Source: an uncultured Clostridia bacterium
GTDB lineage: Bacteria; Bacillota; Clostridia; Oscillospirales; Ruminococcaceae
Length of the DNA stretch: 24,609 nucleotides
Direction of reading: 5' to 3'
Assembly: GCA_937871145.1 (NCBI GenBank)
Contig: CALMXN010000117.1
Coordinates: forward strand, 1 to 24,609
The notes beneath the pieces are model-generated. The model was not told the origin of the DNA. It worked only from the letters and a program-made list of their open reading frames with translations, and did not search any database. How positions within the stretch are numbered: position 1 is the first letter of the stretch; each line of letters opens with the position of its first letter. Shown here in pieces: positions 754 to 6,793 of the stretch. The translations under genes were made by a program, and so were the position numbers.

Positions 754-1932
754 ATGAAAAGTATAAGAAGACAACGCGCAAAGGTAATAAGTGTTATTAC
801 TGCAGTAATTGCTATACCTGCGGTTACTGTATATTTTGCGATGACGTCTGCTGCATTCAACAGGGTTACAAAGAAAGCAACATTATTCTGTGCTAACATA
901 AAAGTCGGTGAAGCTGACAAAAAAACTGAAGATAAAAATGTTGCTGTGAATAACAATATAAGTCTTGAGGTCAACGGTGAACAGTTCGTTTCTGAAGGCT
1001 CATTATGGAGTCTTGATATGGCACCGCAGGAGCAAGAAATAAAGGTTGCACCTGAGGAAGCAGCAAAGCCTCTCCCACAGACATCTTCAAGTGGTGGCGG
1101 AGCATTGCCGTATCCGACAAGTCAGGAAAAGCACAGTGGTCTGATAAAACAGCTTTCCTTCACAAAATACAGTAGTGCACAATACATAAATCTTGCGTCG
1201 GGAGGTCAGGTCAGAAACTGCACAAGCGTTGCAAATAATAAGCTTACTGCCGAAAGCAAGCTTTTGCCTGACTTTAAAATAGTATTGAACAGCGAGCCAC
1301 AGGTTCTCATAATGCATTCACACACAACAGAAAGCTATGAGCCATACACAAGGGATTTTTATGATGCAAGCTTTCATTCAAGGACTACCGACAATTCAAA
1401 AAATGTTGTAGCTGTCGGTGATAAGATAGAAGCAGAGCTGAAAGCCGCAGGTATTGGCGTTATCCACGACAAGACTGTACACGATTATCCTTCATACAAC
1501 GGATCATATCAGCGAAGTGAAATAACAGTAAGAAACATACTTAAAAAATATCCGTCAATTAAGGTTGTGCTTGATGTTCATCGTGATGCAATTCAGACAC
1601 AGGATGGTGTAAGAAGTGCACCTGTTGCTAAAATCAACGGCAAGCAGGCCGCACAGATTATGATTATTTCAGGCTGTGATGACGGTACGATGAATATGCC
1701 GAACTATATGAAGAATTTCAGGCTTTCATCACTTCTCCAGCAACAGCTTGAGGGGGATTATCCAGGTATCACAAGACCGGTATTGTTTGATTACAGAAAG
1801 TATAATCAGGATCTGACAACAGGTTCAATTCTTCTTGAAATGGGTTCCCACGGGAATTCACTTGACGAGGCTTTATATTCAGGTGAACTTATGGGTAAGG
1901 CATTAGCAAAATCATTGCTTAAATGCAAATAA
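754..1932 (+). CDS. spoIIP: Stage II sporulation protein P (engulfment peptidoglycan amidase/endopeptidase)
   Basis: N-terminal TM anchor; SpoIIP motifs VLIMHSHTTESY, VVAVG, HDKTVHD, LDVHRDA, LLEMG, GNSLDEA. ATG 754 follows GAGGAAG. Confidence 0.93.
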   Translation: MKSIRRQRAKVISVITAVIAIPAVTVYFAMTSAAFNRVTKKATLFCANIKVGEADKKTEDKNVAVNNNISLEVNGEQFVSEGSLWSLDMAPQEQEIKVAPEEAAKPLPQTSSSGGGALPYPTSQEKHSGLIKQLSFTKYSSAQYINLASGGQVRNCTSVANNKLTAESKLLPDFKIVLNSEPQVLIMHSHTTESYEPYTRDFYDASFHSRTTDNSKNVVAVGDKIEAELKAAGIGVIHDKTVHDYPSYNGSYQRSEITVRNILKKYPSIKVVLDVHRDAIQTQDGVRSAPVAKINGKQAAQIMIISGCDDGTMNMPNYMKNFRLSSLLQQQLEGDYPGITRPVLFDYRKYNQDLTTGSILLEMGSHGNSLDEALYSGELMGKALAKSLLKCK

Positions 1933-1939
1933 TAAAACA

Positions 1940-1971
1940 AACCGCAGTACTATTATAAATGTACTGCGGTT
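1940..1971. terminator. Bidirectional intrinsic terminator between convergent genes
   Basis: Perfect 11-bp inverted repeat AACCGCAGTAC (1940-1950) / GTACTGCGGTT (1961-1971), A-rich on the left, T-rich on the right. Confidence 0.8.
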
Positions 1972-2686
1972 ATTTGTTCTTGAAAATTTCTGTCCTCAGG
2001 CGTCTTTCACGTCTGACAGGAGCTTTTGCGAGGCGAAGCATCTGTTCGTGATATTTCCTTCTGTTTTCAAGACGCGCCTTTTCAAATGAACAAGCATGTC
2101 GTATCATTTTCACTACCCTTGACGGATTATTATAAACATCGTGAATATCAATTTTTTCAAGCTCAGCGGTTGAGTTATAATTATACCACCATACATCAAA
2201 CCTGACATTGCCCTTTTCGTCTGTTGTATAGTGGAGTCTTTCTGCTTTATCGTTAATCATCCGGATTTTGCCTGTAATAATAATTTTTCGCTTCTTGAGG
2301 GTTATTGATTTAAGTTCAGATAATTTAATAATGTAGAGATTTTTGTAATATATTTTTTTAAAACGGTTAATCACTGTTTCTTTGTGACAGCTTATTATTA
2401 AGTAATTTGATAAAATATCAATAAAGGTATTTTTCTTATGCGCTTTGATAAGGCTGTGGCAGAGAAGAAAAACTGATAAGCAATAGAGAAATGTTGCACA
2501 GCAACCCACAATTAAACAAATCTTAAGAATTTTTGGCGGGAAGTCATTGCTCAGGTATTTTCTGTTGATTAAAGCCATGAGAACCACAACTAAATTAAAC
2601 TGTAAAAAAGGAATAAGTCCACCCAGAAAACGCAATCGGTATTTTTTCCGGAGTTTTTTAATATCCGGAATAATAAACTTATTCAT
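1970..2686 (-). CDS. Hypothetical membrane protein (2 N-terminal TM helices, basic cytoplasmic domain)
   Basis: 238-aa ORF; AAGGA RBS 6 nt before ATG, overlapping the stop of the upstream minus-strand gene. No family recognised. Confidence 0.75.
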   Translation of the reverse strand: MNKFIIPDIKKLRKKYRLRFLGGLIPFLQFNLVVVLMALINRKYLSNDFPPKILKICLIVGCCATFLYCLSVFLLCHSLIKAHKKNTFIDILSNYLIISCHKETVINRFKKIYYKNLYIIKLSELKSITLKKRKIIITGKIRMINDKAERLHYTTDEKGNVRFDVWWYNYNSTAELEKIDIHDVYNNPSRVVKMIRHACSFEKARLENRRKYHEQMLRLAKAPVRRERRLRTEIFKNK

Positions 2687-2696
2687 AGTATATCCT

Positions 2697-3233
2697 TTAT
2701 AAAGTAATCTGAGAAATATTGCTGTATGTATATTGCTTCATATCACCCGAATAAAGTAATGTAGCGTTTTTCAGATATCTGAAATCATCGGGAGTTATCA
2801 GTGAAATATCCTTATTGAATTTTGCTATTCCCGAATAGGTCAGCATATATGCCACGAACTGTGAGCATACAAATCTTGTACGTCTTTTTAAAGGTATACC
2901 AAGCGGCACAGTCAGAAGTCCAAGCAGGTTATAGGAATATAACTGTGTCTTTGTTTTGAAGTGGGTAATAAGATCGTTGTATCTTTTAAGCTGACTATCG
3001 GTTACTTCAAAGCTGTATATTTCACATGGTATTGATGAAAACAGCCCATATACACCTGTATGTATACTTTCATTCTTAAAACCAGCCGGCAAAGGACGGT
3101 ACTTGTTGAAACGGGAAAAACTGAACATTTCACTTAGTTCTTTATCCGTCGTTATGGAAACATGGTTAAAAGGTGTTCTCGTGAAGGCTTTAATTGTCTT
3201 TGACACCATGGTGCCGGTCTGTGTCAGAACCAC
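2697..3233 (-). CDS. Permuted papain-like amidase (NlpC/P60 superfamily, YaeF/YiiX-like); true start probably ATA at 3260
   Basis: His motif (FNHVSI) precedes Cys motif (FVCSQFVA), then the TPDDF motif: the circularly permuted NlpC/P60 order. Confidence 0.7.
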   Translation of the reverse strand: MVLTQTGTMVSKTIKAFTRTPFNHVSITTDKELSEMFSFSRFNKYRPLPAGFKNESIHTGVYGLFSSIPCEIYSFEVTDSQLKRYNDLITHFKTKTQLYSYNLLGLLTVPLGIPLKRRTRFVCSQFVAYMLTYSGIAKFNKDISLITPDDFRYLKNATLLYSGDMKQYTYSNISQITL

Positions 3234-3289
3234 ATATATGTATTGTTTATTATTTGATATAATAATCTCCTGAAATAATTTATATGTAT

Positions 3290-3318
3290 ATTATATAACA
3301 AAATTTAAACATTGTATA
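3290..3318 (-). promoter_or_regulatory. Possible sigma-A promoter for the minus-strand operon
   Basis: On the minus strand: TATACA (3318-3313), 17 nt, TATAAT (3295-3290), upstream of AGGAG (3271-3267). The region is very AT-rich, so a chance match is possible. Confidence 0.4.
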
Positions 3319-3397
3319 GTACTGGTGAATTATTGTTTTTTATTGCACAAAAAAGCACACTTACATTTATGAAAAATAACAATCATTCTATAAGATA

Positions 3398-3426
3398 TTG
3401 CAAAAAAATCATATATAAGATATAAT
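3398..3426 (+). promoter_or_regulatory. sigma-A promoter of the pilZ-parA-comFB unit
   Basis: TTGCAA (3398-3403), 17-nt spacer, TATAAT (3421-3426). Confidence 0.75.
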
Positions 3427-3490
3427 TAAAAATATGATAGAATTACTGTATTTTGTAGTTAAAAGATAAAAACAGGAGTTGACACCACAA

Positions 3491-4150
3491 ATGATTGATA
3501 AAAGAAAAATTATTAAAGTTGATGTCTATTCTTTTAAGAATGGGTTGATAGTTTCATCGGAAACTTTCAATGTCATGCCTGTTGACCATAAGGATGAACT
3601 GTTCAGCGTAATGATAAAAAGCGCTAATATACCTGAAATCCCAAAGAACACGCCGGTTGAGGTTGTATTCTATTATATAAACGGCGACAGAGTAAAATAC
3701 AATACAAAAATTGATGTATGCACAGAATTCCAGCTTAATGTCACTGTCGGAACAGCAAGCACAGTTCTTGAGGAAAGAAGACGTTTTTATAAGCTTGCAA
3801 CCGATCTTGATGCAAGCATATCAATCATGACAAGGGGCGAAGAAGACACAGTTTTTGACACCCCTGTTTCTGCTAAAATTAAGAACATCAACATTGGCGG
3901 GGTTTTCCTTGAATGTGCTTATGACTTCAGAGCAGGCGACATAATTGTTCTGAGTTTCAATGCCTTTGGAACAGAGCTTGATCTTTCGTCAAAGATATTA
4001 CGGATTCAGAAAACTGATAACAAGGTTGAAGGCTATGGATGTCAGTTTATAAAACTTAAAAACCGTGAAGAGGAAATTCTTGCAAGATATATAAATAACG
4101 TTCAACGTGAATCACTTGATATAATAAAAAACATACTAAACACAAGATAA
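3491..4150 (+). CDS. PilZ-domain protein (YcgR/MotI-like architecture), variant c-di-GMP motifs
   Basis: N-terminal beta domain then ERRRFYK and NINIGG (PilZ RxxxR and D/NxSxxG positions), C-terminal YGCQF and LARYI. ATG 3491 preferred because TTG 3479 abuts the AGGAG RBS. Confidence 0.85.
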   Translation: MIDKRKIIKVDVYSFKNGLIVSSETFNVMPVDHKDELFSVMIKSANIPEIPKNTPVEVVFYYINGDRVKYNTKIDVCTEFQLNVTVGTASTVLEERRRFYKLATDLDASISIMTRGEEDTVFDTPVSAKIKNINIGGVFLECAYDFRAGDIIVLSFNAFGTELDLSSKILRIQKTDNKVEGYGCQFIKLKNREEEILARYINNVQRESLDIIKNILNTR

Positions 4151-4176
4151 CTTACTATTAAAAATACGGAGGAAAT

Positions 4177-4938
4177 ATGGCAAAAGTAATCACCTTTACT
4201 AATCAGAAGGGTGGCGTAGGAAAAACAACTACAGCTGCTGCTTTTTGTGGGGCTTTTGTTGCAAAGGGGAAAAAGGTCTTGGCAATCGATCTGGACCCGC
4301 AGGGTAATTTGTCATTCAGCCTTGGTGCCGACGACGATGAATATACTATACATGACGTTCTGTTGGGGAAGGTGTCTATACATGAGGCCATACAGACAAC
4401 AAACAACTGTGATGTCATACCTTCAAACATTCTTCTCAGCGGGCTTGAGCTTGAACTTTCTTCAGTCGGAAGAGAATATCTCCTGAAGGAAAAGCTTGCG
4501 CCGATAATGAAGTTTTATGACTATATAGTAATAGACACACCACCTGCATTGAGTATTCTTACTATTAATTCTTATATTGCCTGCAATGATCTGATTATCC
4601 CGATGACTCCTGAAATTTTAAGTCTTCAGGGAATTGCACAGCTTAAGGATACAATCATTGCGGTAAAAAAATATTACAACAAGTCGCTTAACTTAAGAGG
4701 CATACTTCTTACAAAATATAATGAGAGAATACTTCTTACAAAAGAAGTTGAAGAGCTTGCATCAATTGTTGCAGGTCAGCTTGGCAGTTCTGTTCTTAAA
4801 ACAAAAATTTCTGTCAGCGTAGCAGTGGCAGAAGCACCTGCTCATAAAATGTCTATTGTAAGATACGCTCCGCGTGTTAAAGCGAGCAGGGATTATGTCA
4901 GGGTAGTGGACGAGCTTTATGGGGAGGAATTAAGGTGA
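4177..4938 (+). CDS. Orphan Soj/ParA-family ATPase
   Basis: Deviant Walker A NQKGGVGKTT, DLDPQGN, DTPP, EAP; GGAGGA RBS. No parB adjacent. Confidence 0.92.
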   Translation: MAKVITFTNQKGGVGKTTTAAAFCGAFVAKGKKVLAIDLDPQGNLSFSLGADDDEYTIHDVLLGKVSIHEAIQTTNNCDVIPSNILLSGLELELSSVGREYLLKEKLAPIMKFYDYIVIDTPPALSILTINSYIACNDLIIPMTPEILSLQGIAQLKDTIIAVKKYYNKSLNLRGILLTKYNERILLTKEVEELASIVAGQLGSSVLKTKISVSVAVAEAPAHKMSIVRYAPRVKASRDYVRVVDELYGEELR

Positions 4939-5372
4939 ACAAGAAGACCAATAAGACAGCTCATGTTCTCAAACTGCTTACCAATTCAGATGCAACAATA
5001 AAAGAAAATCCTATTCTTAATGAAGAATTCAAGGATGAAATGATATTAAACAGACACACACACAAGGGTGAAGAATTTGACGAAGCTCCGGAAAATATTA
5101 TTCTTCCGAAAACAGTGGGAATAAATATAATTTCAGATCTGATTGAGGAAAACCTTGTAACAGTCCTTGAAAGATTCAGGTGCTGTACTTGCGAGAAGTG
5201 CAAGAAATATATTTCTATTGAGGCACTTAATCAGCTTCAGCCAAAGTATGTCTCTGCTGAAGATGTTAGCGAAAAAGAAATTTTAAACCTTAAGGAAAAG
5301 TATAAAACGAGCGTTGTAACAGTTCTTTTAAAGATTGCTTTACAAATTAAAAGCAATCCTATTCACAAATAA
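4935..5372 (+). CDS. ComFB-family protein with N-terminal extension
   Basis: CxCxxC (CTCEKC), ALNQLQPKYV and terminal PIH match the ComFB pattern CxCxxCxxDxxALALNxLPPxYV...PxH. GTGA start/stop overlap with parA; GGAGGA RBS. Confidence 0.8.
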   Translation: MNKKTNKTAHVLKLLTNSDATIKENPILNEEFKDEMILNRHTHKGEEFDEAPENIILPKTVGINIISDLIEENLVTVLERFRCCTCEKCKKYISIEALNQLQPKYVSAEDVSEKEILNLKEKYKTSVVTVLLKIALQIKSNPIHK

Positions 5373-5378
5373 TTCACA

Positions 5379-5414
5379 ACCCGACATTAATTAGTGGTGT
5401 CGGGTATTATTTTT
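5379..5414 (+). terminator. Intrinsic terminator after comFB
   Basis: ACCCGACA (5379-5386) / TGTCGGGT (5398-5405) stem followed by ATTATTTTT. Confidence 0.7.
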
Positions 5415-5497
5415 GTCTTATCTTACAAAAAATGCAACACATTTAACAAATAATCGATACAAAAATCAGGAAATTTTAGCAAATAGCAAAAAAAGTA

Positions 5498-5526
5498 TTG
5501 AAATTCCCTGTCGGATAAAGTATAAT
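5498..5526 (+). promoter_or_regulatory. sigma-A promoter of the flagellar operon
   Basis: TTGAAA (5498-5503), 17-nt spacer, TATAAT (5521-5526); A-rich UP-like tract upstream. Confidence 0.8.
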
Positions 5527-5613
5527 TGTAATAAATATAATAAGCAAATTATCTGATGATAAATAATTCACACTTTTTTAATAAAATATACGGATTTGAG
5601 AAAGGATGATAGC

Positions 5614-5985
5614 ATGGCTTTGTTAAATAATTCGTCATTCCGTTTACTTCAGCAGGGGCTTGATGCGGTTTGGCTCAAGCAGAAAGTAATCAACCAGAAT
5701 ATCGCAAATTCTGACACACCTGGATATAAAGCAAAAAGTGTTCAGTTCTCCACTTTACTAAAAGATAAATGCAAATACCATCAGTACCATAATCAGGATG
5801 ACGGGGATATGAACCTCAAAACAACAATAACAGAAGAAAAAGGAACCAACCAGCTTCTTGACGGCAACAATGTTGACGTTGAAAAGGAAATGATGGACCT
5901 TGCCGATGCACAGTATCAGTATGATGTTCTTTCGGGGAAAATCACAAATGAATTTTCAATGCTAAGAACAGCTATCACAAGATAA
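5614..5985 (+). CDS. flgB: Flagellar basal-body rod protein FlgB
   Basis: NIANSDTPGYKAK and DGNNVDVEKEM motifs; AAGGA RBS supports ATG 5614. Confidence 0.96.
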   Translation: MALLNNSSFRLLQQGLDAVWLKQKVINQNIANSDTPGYKAKSVQFSTLLKDKCKYHQYHNQDDGDMNLKTTITEEKGTNQLLDGNNVDVEKEMMDLADAQYQYDVLSGKITNEFSMLRTAITR

Positions 5986-5998
5986 CGGAGGAATTTGA

Positions 5999-6427
5999 AT
6001 GTCTTTTTTAAATTCACTTGATATAGGAAGAAATGCACTATCAGCCCAGCGTCTCAGAATGGACGTCATTACACAGAACATAGCAAATGCAGAGACAACA
6101 AGGACTTCAGACGGTGGACCTTACAGGCGTCAGATGGTTGTTTTTGAGGAACGCAAAAGCTTCAAAAGTATTCTTGGGGAGAAAAGAAAAGAAAATTACG
6201 AGGGCGTAAATGTAGCAGCCGTTGTAAAAGACGATGCACCGTTTACTCCAGTATATGATCCGACAAACCCGGATGCTAATGAGGACGGCTATGTAATGAT
6301 GCCGAATGTTGACAAGACAAAGGAACAGCTTGACTTAATGGCAGCGACACGTTCATATGAAGCTAATATTACTGCTATCAATGCAGTAAAAGCAATGGCT
6401 TCAAGAGCACTCCAGATAGGAAAATAA
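5999..6427 (+). CDS. flgC: Flagellar basal-body rod protein FlgC
   Basis: QRLRMDVITQNIANAETT, GGPYRRQ, YDPTNPDANEDGYVMMPNV, SYEAN. Confidence 0.97.
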   Translation: MSFLNSLDIGRNALSAQRLRMDVITQNIANAETTRTSDGGPYRRQMVVFEERKSFKSILGEKRKENYEGVNVAAVVKDDAPFTPVYDPTNPDANEDGYVMMPNVDKTKEQLDLMAATRSYEANITAINAVKAMASRALQIGK

Positions 6428-6453
6428 CATACGTTTAAAATAAGGAGAAATAT

Positions 6454-6756
6454 ATGTACATAGTACCAATGAGCGGAATTACTCCGTTAGAGACACCTTC
6501 ACAGGTTGGGTCAACACCAAAATCAAATTCATCCGAAGGTTCTTTTGCTGATGTATTCAAAGATGCTTTGAAAAATGCACAGGATACACAGAAGGTCTGC
6601 GAAGATGATAATATTAAGGTTGCACTTGGTGAAATTGATGATCTCCATACGGTTCAGATTAATATGCAGAAGGCAGCGCTTGCACTTGAAACCTTTGTTT
6701 CAATGAAGAACACAGCAGTAGACGCCTATAATGAAATTATGAGAATGAGCGTCTAA
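6454..6756 (+). CDS. fliE: Flagellar hook-basal body protein FliE
   Basis: SFADVFKDAL, DLHTVQI, AYNEIMRMSV; position after flgC. Confidence 0.95.
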   Translation: MYIVPMSGITPLETPSQVGSTPKSNSSEGSFADVFKDALKNAQDTQKVCEDDNIKVALGEIDDLHTVQINMQKAALALETFVSMKNTAVDAYNEIMRMSV

Positions 6757-6793
6757 TTCAGTATTAATTTGAAAATAAGCAGGAGGTTTAGGC

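Follow-up and report, generated by a model that had tools for sequence, protein, structure and literature searches.

Partner proteins of ParA/MinD-family ATPases carry a positively charged motif at their N-terminus, with which they dock at the interface of the ATPase dimer (PMC10241942, PMC12462528), and in ParABS the docking pocket is built from both subunits of the ParA dimer (PMC12462528). The ComFB family was recognised in 2023-2025 as widespread receptors of cyclic dinucleotides (c-di-NMP) that affect motility. Characterised ComFB domains are dimers and contact cyclic di-GMP (c-di-GMP), in the numbering of Bacillus subtilis ComFB (BsComFB), through Asp33, Asn40, Arg/Lys41, Ala36/Leu37/Val47 and Tyr55 (PMC12448109). 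When bound to c-di-GMP, BsComFB makes cells swim more slowly and tumble less, suppressors fall in CheY, FliM and FliY, and the protein alters motor behaviour with flagellar abundance unchanged (10.1101/2025.07.11.664319). The proximity of comFB to flagellar genes has been noted in published neighbourhoods (PMC12448109), and a PNAS survey of comFB neighbourhoods names flagellar, pilus, hfq and GGDEF neighbours in its text and makes no mention of ParA there. A full-text literature search returned no paper linking ComFB to ParA. Here we describe a locus in which the two are neighbours, a pilZ-parA-comFB operon in a stretch of 24,609 nucleotides (the window), which is contig CALMXN010000117.1 (C117) of a 75% complete metagenome-assembled genome (MAG) of an uncultured Clostridia bacterium (GCA_937871145.1, here G000).

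The three genes run in the same direction, with a divergent pair of uncharacterised genes on their upstream side and flgB downstream (Table 1). An earlier note on this DNA, made from the sequence alone, had read the trio as a positioning or motility-control module gated by a second messenger, with the ComFB protein as partner of a ParA that has no ParB, and had suggested a neighbourhood survey of parA-comFB pairs in Clostridia. The promoter, three genes, 26-nucleotide gap, GTGA overlap, terminator and flgB promoter that it described all lie where it placed them, and the absence of parB was borne out as well: the window has no ParB domain, and the only ParB_N hits of the genome flank a separate Soj on contig C151. 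Our reading, to which we assign a probability of about 55%, is that the operon is built around a cognate ATPase and partner, which form part of the flagellar apparatus and work by the mechanism proposed below.

The survey, carried out as a genome scan with one genome per species, gave 33 loci, 31 of them informative, from Anaerotignum, Lachnospiraceae, Ruminococcus, Lawsonibacter, Evtepia, Proteocatella, Filifactoraceae and others. A ParA that is 46-98% identical to the window ParA lies directly upstream of the ComFB frame in 30 of the 31 informative loci, and in all three further metagenomic or MAG places looked up a ParA gene again directly precedes a ComFB gene carrying the N-terminal tag described below. 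The pilZ gene joins the two only in the family of the window organism. The conserved core is the ParA-ComFB pair, not the pilZ-parA-comFB trio.

The ComFB protein of the window matches PF10719 over residues 64-141 (8e-8; 32.7 bits, cut-off 25), and the ComFB profile finds BsComFB (4WAI) at 1.2e-4. Its AlphaFold2 model is confident over residues 60-145 (predicted local distance difference test, pLDDT, about 90) and of low confidence over residues 1-58, which appear disordered apart from a short helix at 7-16. In the window-type homologues, residues 1-38 are near-invariant and are followed by a variable stretch and then by the ComFB domain. The near-invariant N-terminal tag has the overall consensus M-x-K/R-K-T-N-K-T-A/S-H-V-L-x-L-L; in the window-type homologues K4, N6, K7, T8, A9, V11, L14 and L15 of the tag are invariant, and its conservation exceeds that of the ComFB domain. 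Partners at distant loci are longer (180-346 amino acids) and have the same build, opening with M-x-[RK]-K-T-N-K-T-A-H-V-L-N-L-[LI] and continuing through an acidic, low-complexity linker to a C-terminal ComFB domain. A search with one of these long-form partners gave 331 clusters, and MAKKTNKT[SA]H[VIL][LM][ND]L[LI]T opens 120 of 120 among those listed; their source names read 'late competence development ComFB family protein' or 'hypothetical protein'. None of 400 class-sampled genomes had an exact DNA match to the KTNKTAHV pattern, an undercount given that most Lachnospiraceae tags read KTNKTSHV, and a pattern that allowed Ala or Ser and added Asn/Asp-Leu after HVL was found in none of 150, a pattern that excludes the window tag too. 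The window tag, MNKKTNKTAHVLKLL, has the same layout as the N-terminus of the genome's own ParB, MAKKRGLGMGMDALF.

The window ParA matches AAA_31 of Pfam at 7.5e-53 and the Myxococcus xanthus ParA-ParB structure 8RAY at 2e-39. It carries the deviant Walker A motif NQKGGVGKTT, with K11, K16, D38, D40 and D120 invariant among 26 orthologues. The protein begins at the Walker A strand and ends in ...DELYGEELR, and some orthologues have basic C-terminal tails. The genome encodes two other ParA-type paralogues: a Soj, 38% identical to the window ParA, which sits with ParB and Noc in a noc-soj-spo0J locus on C151, and a MinD beside a gene for a penicillin-binding protein. In a maximum-likelihood tree the ComFB-linked ParAs form a single clade (support 100/99), which excludes the Soj proteins encoded in these genomes, with a PilZ-linked short type (97/87) and a long type (95/92) as subclades. 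Lying outside the Soj clade and having no adjacent parB, the window ParA is not a member of Soj/ParABS; it is a functional-looking deviant-Walker-A ATPase of a clade of its own. An argument from a DNA-binding arginine of Soj that this ParA lacks was dropped, as the genome's own Soj lacks that residue likewise.

The two ParAs that form a subclade of their own (99/100) have partners with a different tag, M..K....M[FY].KIMPS; the type of tag follows the ParA subclade, and the peptide therefore co-varies with the ATPase. These two pairs, at 7406-8570 of contig G022:C6 (L031) and at 1598-2794 of L047, belong to a deeply branching ParA subclade with 42-46% identity to the window ParA, and the G022 pair is divergent from flgB-flgC. 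Because the two genes are adjacent or overlapping in nearly all informative loci, the tag is near-invariant and its variants follow the ParA subclades, it is highly likely, as far as comparison of sequences can tell, that the ComFB protein is a dedicated partner of ParA, as the earlier note had surmised. A complex prediction of one ParA chain with ComFB residues 1-45, made with their own alignments, scored 0.00; a design with one ParA chain may not suit a pocket that in ParABS involves both subunits, and the score counts neither way.

Among flagellar genes, the pair has at least four different placements. It stands upstream of flgB in the window and six other places (G003, G004, G005, G007, G011 and L037); within flhA-fliA-flgG-flgG-(cheC-cheD-cheV-...)-parA-comFB-fliD-fliS in L042 and L092; divergent from fliD or fliS and convergent with cheV-cheD-cheC-flgG-flgG-fliA-flhA in L043, L064 and G009; and between fliD-fliS and csrA-fliW-flgK in L090 and L093. 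Among the loci that span 10 kb or more, 22 of 25 contain flagellar genes, as detected with the window's own proteins. The refuting case named at the outset, that the pair is equally common in non-motile genomes, did not materialise in the window's family, where 11 of 12 FlhA-positive genomes carry the ParA orthologue, as against none of 13 FlhA-negative ones; the sole FlhA-positive exception is 55% complete, with ComFB at a contig end. With the pair inside flagellar clusters and co-occurring with FlhA, the suggested tie to motility has held up, and we consider a flagellar function of the pair likely.

The distribution of FlhF, the flagellar GTPase that accompanies FlhG, gives a second line of comparison. 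FlhF (TIGR03499) does not reach the cut-off in any of 18 pair-bearing genomes, where the matches are FtsY and Ffh alone, and is present in 49 of 55 FlhA-positive genomes from an even sample of the class Clostridia. In the window's own genome the remainder of flhA lies on contig C139, where positions 1895-8181 (L087) read flhA-fliA-flgG-flgG-cheC-cheD-fapA, with FapA (PF03961) last and neither flhF nor flhG; the direct flhA-fliA junction recurs in L042 and L092. The window ParA cannot be placed in FlhG/FleN: it has no flhA-flhF position, no FlhF and no C-terminal membrane-targeting helix.

In the window's family the pair is joined by a PilZ protein that matches PF07238 over residues 95-202 (3e-12). 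AlphaFold2 models the protein (pLDDT 84) as two beta-barrels with a C-terminal helix, the PilZN-PilZ architecture, and the top full-length fold matches in the PDB are MotI/DgrA (5VX6, the best), MrkH, PlzD, PP4397 and YcgR; an alignment profile search of PDB sequences gave no match. The RxxxR motif appears as RRRFYK, with R97 and K101 invariant in orthologues, and [DN]xSxxG as NINIGG, with G136 and G137 invariant, the Asn positions varying and the canonical DISLGG in one orthologue. The genome has seven GGDEF genes. In a relative from the same family, positions 5054-9320 of G023:C13 (L122) read pilZ (36% identical)-PAS-GGDEF-parA-tagged partner, and the ComFB-like domain of that partner has no cysteines at all and no match to PF10719.

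In the ComFB domain itself, the window protein keeps the Cys cluster CCTCEKC (C83, C84, C86 and C89), and the BsComFB residues D33/A36/L37/N40/K41/Y46/V47/Y55 correspond to Y/I/E/N/Q/Y/V/E. The long-type partners retain Asp33, Ala36 and Leu37. As the window protein lacks most of the c-di-GMP contact residues, the gating by a second messenger that the earlier note had envisaged is doubtful through ComFB in the window, and PilZ, which in one relative is accompanied by a GGDEF gene, is the better candidate sensor. Sensing of the messenger may rest with the ComFB domain itself in most lineages; in the window's family, we infer, ComFB sensing has decayed and PilZ, in one case with a cyclase, has been recruited instead. 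For this family, c-di-GMP input through PilZ appears somewhat favoured. Elsewhere in the genome, at G000:C36:1257-1538, there is a stand-alone, untagged ComFB paralogue (PF10719, 72.5 bits) with Asp33, Ala36 and Asn40 kept, a more canonical candidate c-di-NMP receptor. In the G004 locus (L027, G004:C4, about 10158-10598) the ComFB match contains two in-frame stops (one TGA, one TAA), and a shorter frame retains the tag MAKKTNKTSHVLRLL together with a Cys-poor domain; either decay or a frame problem in G004 could account for this.

The pilZ-parA-comFB stretch is one operon. The ATG that starts pilZ is backed by the N-termini of orthologues, the gap between pilZ and parA holds a GGAGG ribosome-binding site, and the GTG start of comFB shares GTGA with the stop codon of parA, with GGAGGA upstream. 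Consensus scans find a terminator hairpin at 5379-5405 (11 pairs, including 5 G-C, then a T-run) and 11 of 12 matches in the promoter-like site before flgB. In this AT-rich DNA 15 promoter-like sites were observed in the region against 10.1 +/- 3.3 expected by chance, and the site before pilZ, as TTG[CA]AA-17-TATAAT, is conserved in six species in which the surrounding sequence has diverged. FlgB matches TIGR01396 at 1.2e-24 and is followed by FlgC and FliE. Metatranscriptome contigs from two soil libraries, of a relative about 95% identical, are continuous over 3944/4026-5252, which spans the 3' end of pilZ, the whole of parA and most of comFB, and no contig of these two libraries crosses the terminator; they agree with a single transcript, short of proof given possible DNA carry-over. 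The window stretch is also present in DNA sequencing runs of anaerobic digester, wastewater and sediment samples.

Table 1. Coordinates of the pilZ-parA-comFB operon and the adjoining flagellar operon start in the window.
Feature	Position	Strand	Basis
Sigma-A-type promoter of pilZ-parA-comFB	3398..3426	+	TTGCAA-17-TATAAT, 10/12 consensus matches
pilZ, 219 amino acids	3491..4150	+	PF07238; two-barrel PilZ, MotI/YcgR architecture
parA, 253 amino acids	4177..4938	+	AAA_31; deviant-Walker-A ATPase, clade distinct from Soj
comFB, 145 amino acids	4935..5372	+	PF10719; N-terminal tag, linker and ComFB domain
N-terminal docking-type peptide of the ComFB protein, residues 1-16	4935..4982	+	(V/M)NKKTNKTAHVLKLLT; conservation
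ComFB domain, residues 60-145	5112..5369	+	Alignment to BsComFB 4WAI
Intrinsic terminator at operon end	5379..5414	+	11-pair stem, then ATTATTTTTG
flgB promoter-like site (5498-5526) and flgB (5596-5985), flagellar operon start	5498..5985	+	TTGAAA-17-TATAAT; TIGR01396

Upstream of the -35 element, at 3330-3362, the sequence TTTTTTATTGCACAAAAAAGC[AG]CA is kept in the window, in G003 and in the more distant G005, with diverged flanks, and this stretch may be a putative operator of the operon. Two minus-strand genes at 1970-2686 and 2697-3233 keep their synteny between spoIIP and pilZ throughout the genus and have no Pfam or NCBIfam match. No sigma-D-type promoter pattern occurs within the window, and no Rfam family, c-di-GMP riboswitches included, matches it.

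From the anatomy, conservation, context and co-occurrence observed, we propose the following course of binding, ATPase stimulation, cargo and messenger gating. A ComFB dimer would present two tags to the interface of the ATP-bound ParA dimer, and their docking would stimulate ParA hydrolysis, as the N-terminal motif of ParB does for ParA/Soj. The ComFB domain would bind a flagellar component, for which the genetics of B. subtilis make the switch complex the best lead, and the ATPase cycle of ParA would then control the site or number of flagellar basal bodies, or whether they are assembled or active at all. The likely c-di-GMP input in the window's family would be the co-transcribed PilZ of the MotI/YcgR type. 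Spatial or numerical control of basal bodies, taken by itself, is plausible and falls a little short of an even chance.

Several observations weigh against this mechanism. The FlhF contrast has p = 2e-12 by Fisher's exact test, which ignores relatedness, and eight flagellated Clostridia have neither FlhF nor the pair, so that the pair is not a general substitute for FlhF/FlhG; a hidden pair was sought in six FlhA-positive, FlhF-negative genomes, and none was found. Two genomes (G006 and G001) have a trio that does not adjoin flgB, and both encode FlhA. No C-terminal amphipathic helix is visible in ParA, which bears on the matrix for positioning. The PilZ motifs are variant (RxxxK; N for S), which leaves c-di-GMP binding by this protein putative. 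The window ComFB keeps Asn40, Tyr46 and Val47, but Asp33 is replaced by Tyr, Arg/Lys41 by Gln and Tyr55 by Glu; with these replacements and the decayed Cys cluster of the G023 and G004 partners, the role of the domain may differ from that of characterised ComFBs.

Among other explanations, the one that survives best is a regulatory switch with no spatial role, in which the pair would act on flagellar expression or as an assembly checkpoint, in the manner of FleN-FleQ or through FliA, FliW-CsrA or FliS/FliD. FlhG/FleN-type ATPases also regulate transcription. The genes fliA, csrA-fliW and fliS/fliD are recurrent neighbours of the pair, and one report describes cyanobacterial ComFB/CdgR as acting through transcription factors (10.64898/2026.03.27.713163). 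Against such a switch, the tag-linker-domain build and the ParB-like peptide are hallmarks of a cargo adaptor, and the shift in motor behaviour caused by BsComFB comes without a change in flagellar abundance; on balance we think it unlikely. The same neighbourhoods could also be read as those of a chemotaxis module, with the pair positioning chemoreceptor arrays like ParC/ParP of Vibrio or PpfA/TlpT of Rhodobacter and the ComFB domain docking on array components: cheV, cheD, cheC, a gene for a methyl-accepting chemotaxis protein (MCP) and cheB/cheR lie near the pair in several loci, and CheY is among the BsComFB suppressors. We regard this as quite unlikely, given that the most constant neighbours are the structural flagellar genes fliD/fliS, flgG and flgB, that the partner lacks any domain of the CheW or MCP type, and that it is FlhF, a factor for flagella and not for arrays, with which the pair anticorrelates. 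Mere adjacency of a spare partition ATPase, for instance from a mobile element, with independent pilZ and comFB genes is very improbable and strongly disfavoured: ParA paralogues are indeed common on mobile DNA (one genome, G439, has eight ParA-like hits), but the two genes keep their adjacency or overlap across at least four rearrangements in several Clostridia lineages, the tag co-varies with the ParA subclade, the pair co-occurs with FlhA, and its surroundings are free of parB, integrase and plasmid genes.

The proposed cognate pair in the flagellar apparatus matters beyond this window. For the ComFB family, a translationally coupled ParA partner offers a biochemical handle. A ParA-type module within flagellar clusters is a candidate for setting flagellar number or position in Firmicutes that are peritrichous or lack FlhF/FlhG, and its carriers include abundant gut Lachnospiraceae and Oscillospirales, whose flagellin is immunologically relevant. 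Among carriers in culture are Anaerotignum neopropionicum DSM 3847, A. propionicum and Hominisplanchenecus murintestinalis DSM 111139. The window's family would be a natural experiment in the rewiring of second-messenger input, with ComFB residues lost and a PilZ gene, once also a GGDEF gene, in the operon. Taken to its furthest, the mechanism would make the pair a third kind of system for flagellar number and placement, replacing FlhF/FlhG in some Clostridia: a ParA gradient, acting through ComFB on the switch complex, would set the spacing of basal bodies or license them, under a c-di-GMP gate formed by ComFB in most lineages and by a MotI-like PilZ, with or without a cyclase, here. We offer this extension tentatively and think it somewhat unlikely to hold as a whole.

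Of the described systems, ParA-ParB (Soj-Spo0J; M. xanthus, PMC12462528, 8RAY) shares with the window a deviant Walker A ATPase with its partner gene directly downstream, and a partner whose unstructured N-terminus carries a short basic and aliphatic motif; the window partner, expected to be dimeric, could likewise offer two motifs to a ParA dimer. Unlike ParB, it has no ParB/Srx, helix-turn-helix or CTPase domain and no parS is implied, and its ParA falls in a separate clade, with a normal noc-soj-spo0J locus kept elsewhere and a context that is flagellar rather than that of a replication origin. FlhF/FlhG (FleN) likewise includes a ParA/MinD-family ATPase encoded inside flagellar clusters, and the presence of the pair only where FlhF was not found (0/18) fits an analogous job. 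Unlike FlhG, the window ATPase does not follow flhA-flhF and has neither an N-terminal activator extension nor a C-terminal amphipathic helix; its partner is a ComFB-fold protein and no GTPase, and some FlhF-less flagellates do without the pair.

With BsComFB and cyanobacterial CdgR (PF10719; 4WAI, 8HJA; PMC12448109) the window protein shares the fold family, the Cys cluster, Asn40/Tyr46/Val47 and a link to motility. Those that have been characterised consist of the domain alone, lack an N-terminal tag, are not encoded beside a ParA, and have the Asp33, Arg/Lys41 and Tyr55 that the window protein lacks. The PilZ protein resembles MotI/DgrA of B. subtilis and YcgR of Escherichia coli in size (219 amino acids), in its PilZN-like barrel followed by a PilZ barrel and in being encoded beside flagellar genes; it differs from them in sequence (10-15% identity), in the variant motifs RRRFYK and NINIGG and in its co-transcription with a ParA/partner pair, which sets it apart from MotI/YcgR as described. 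Compared with ParC/ParP, PpfA/TlpT and McdA/McdB (PMC10241942), the adaptor fold (ComFB), the putative cargo and the lineage (Clostridia) are all different. The locus is a new form of the known ParA/partner type, with ComFB as a new partner fold and a new, putative cargo, and probably controls flagella.

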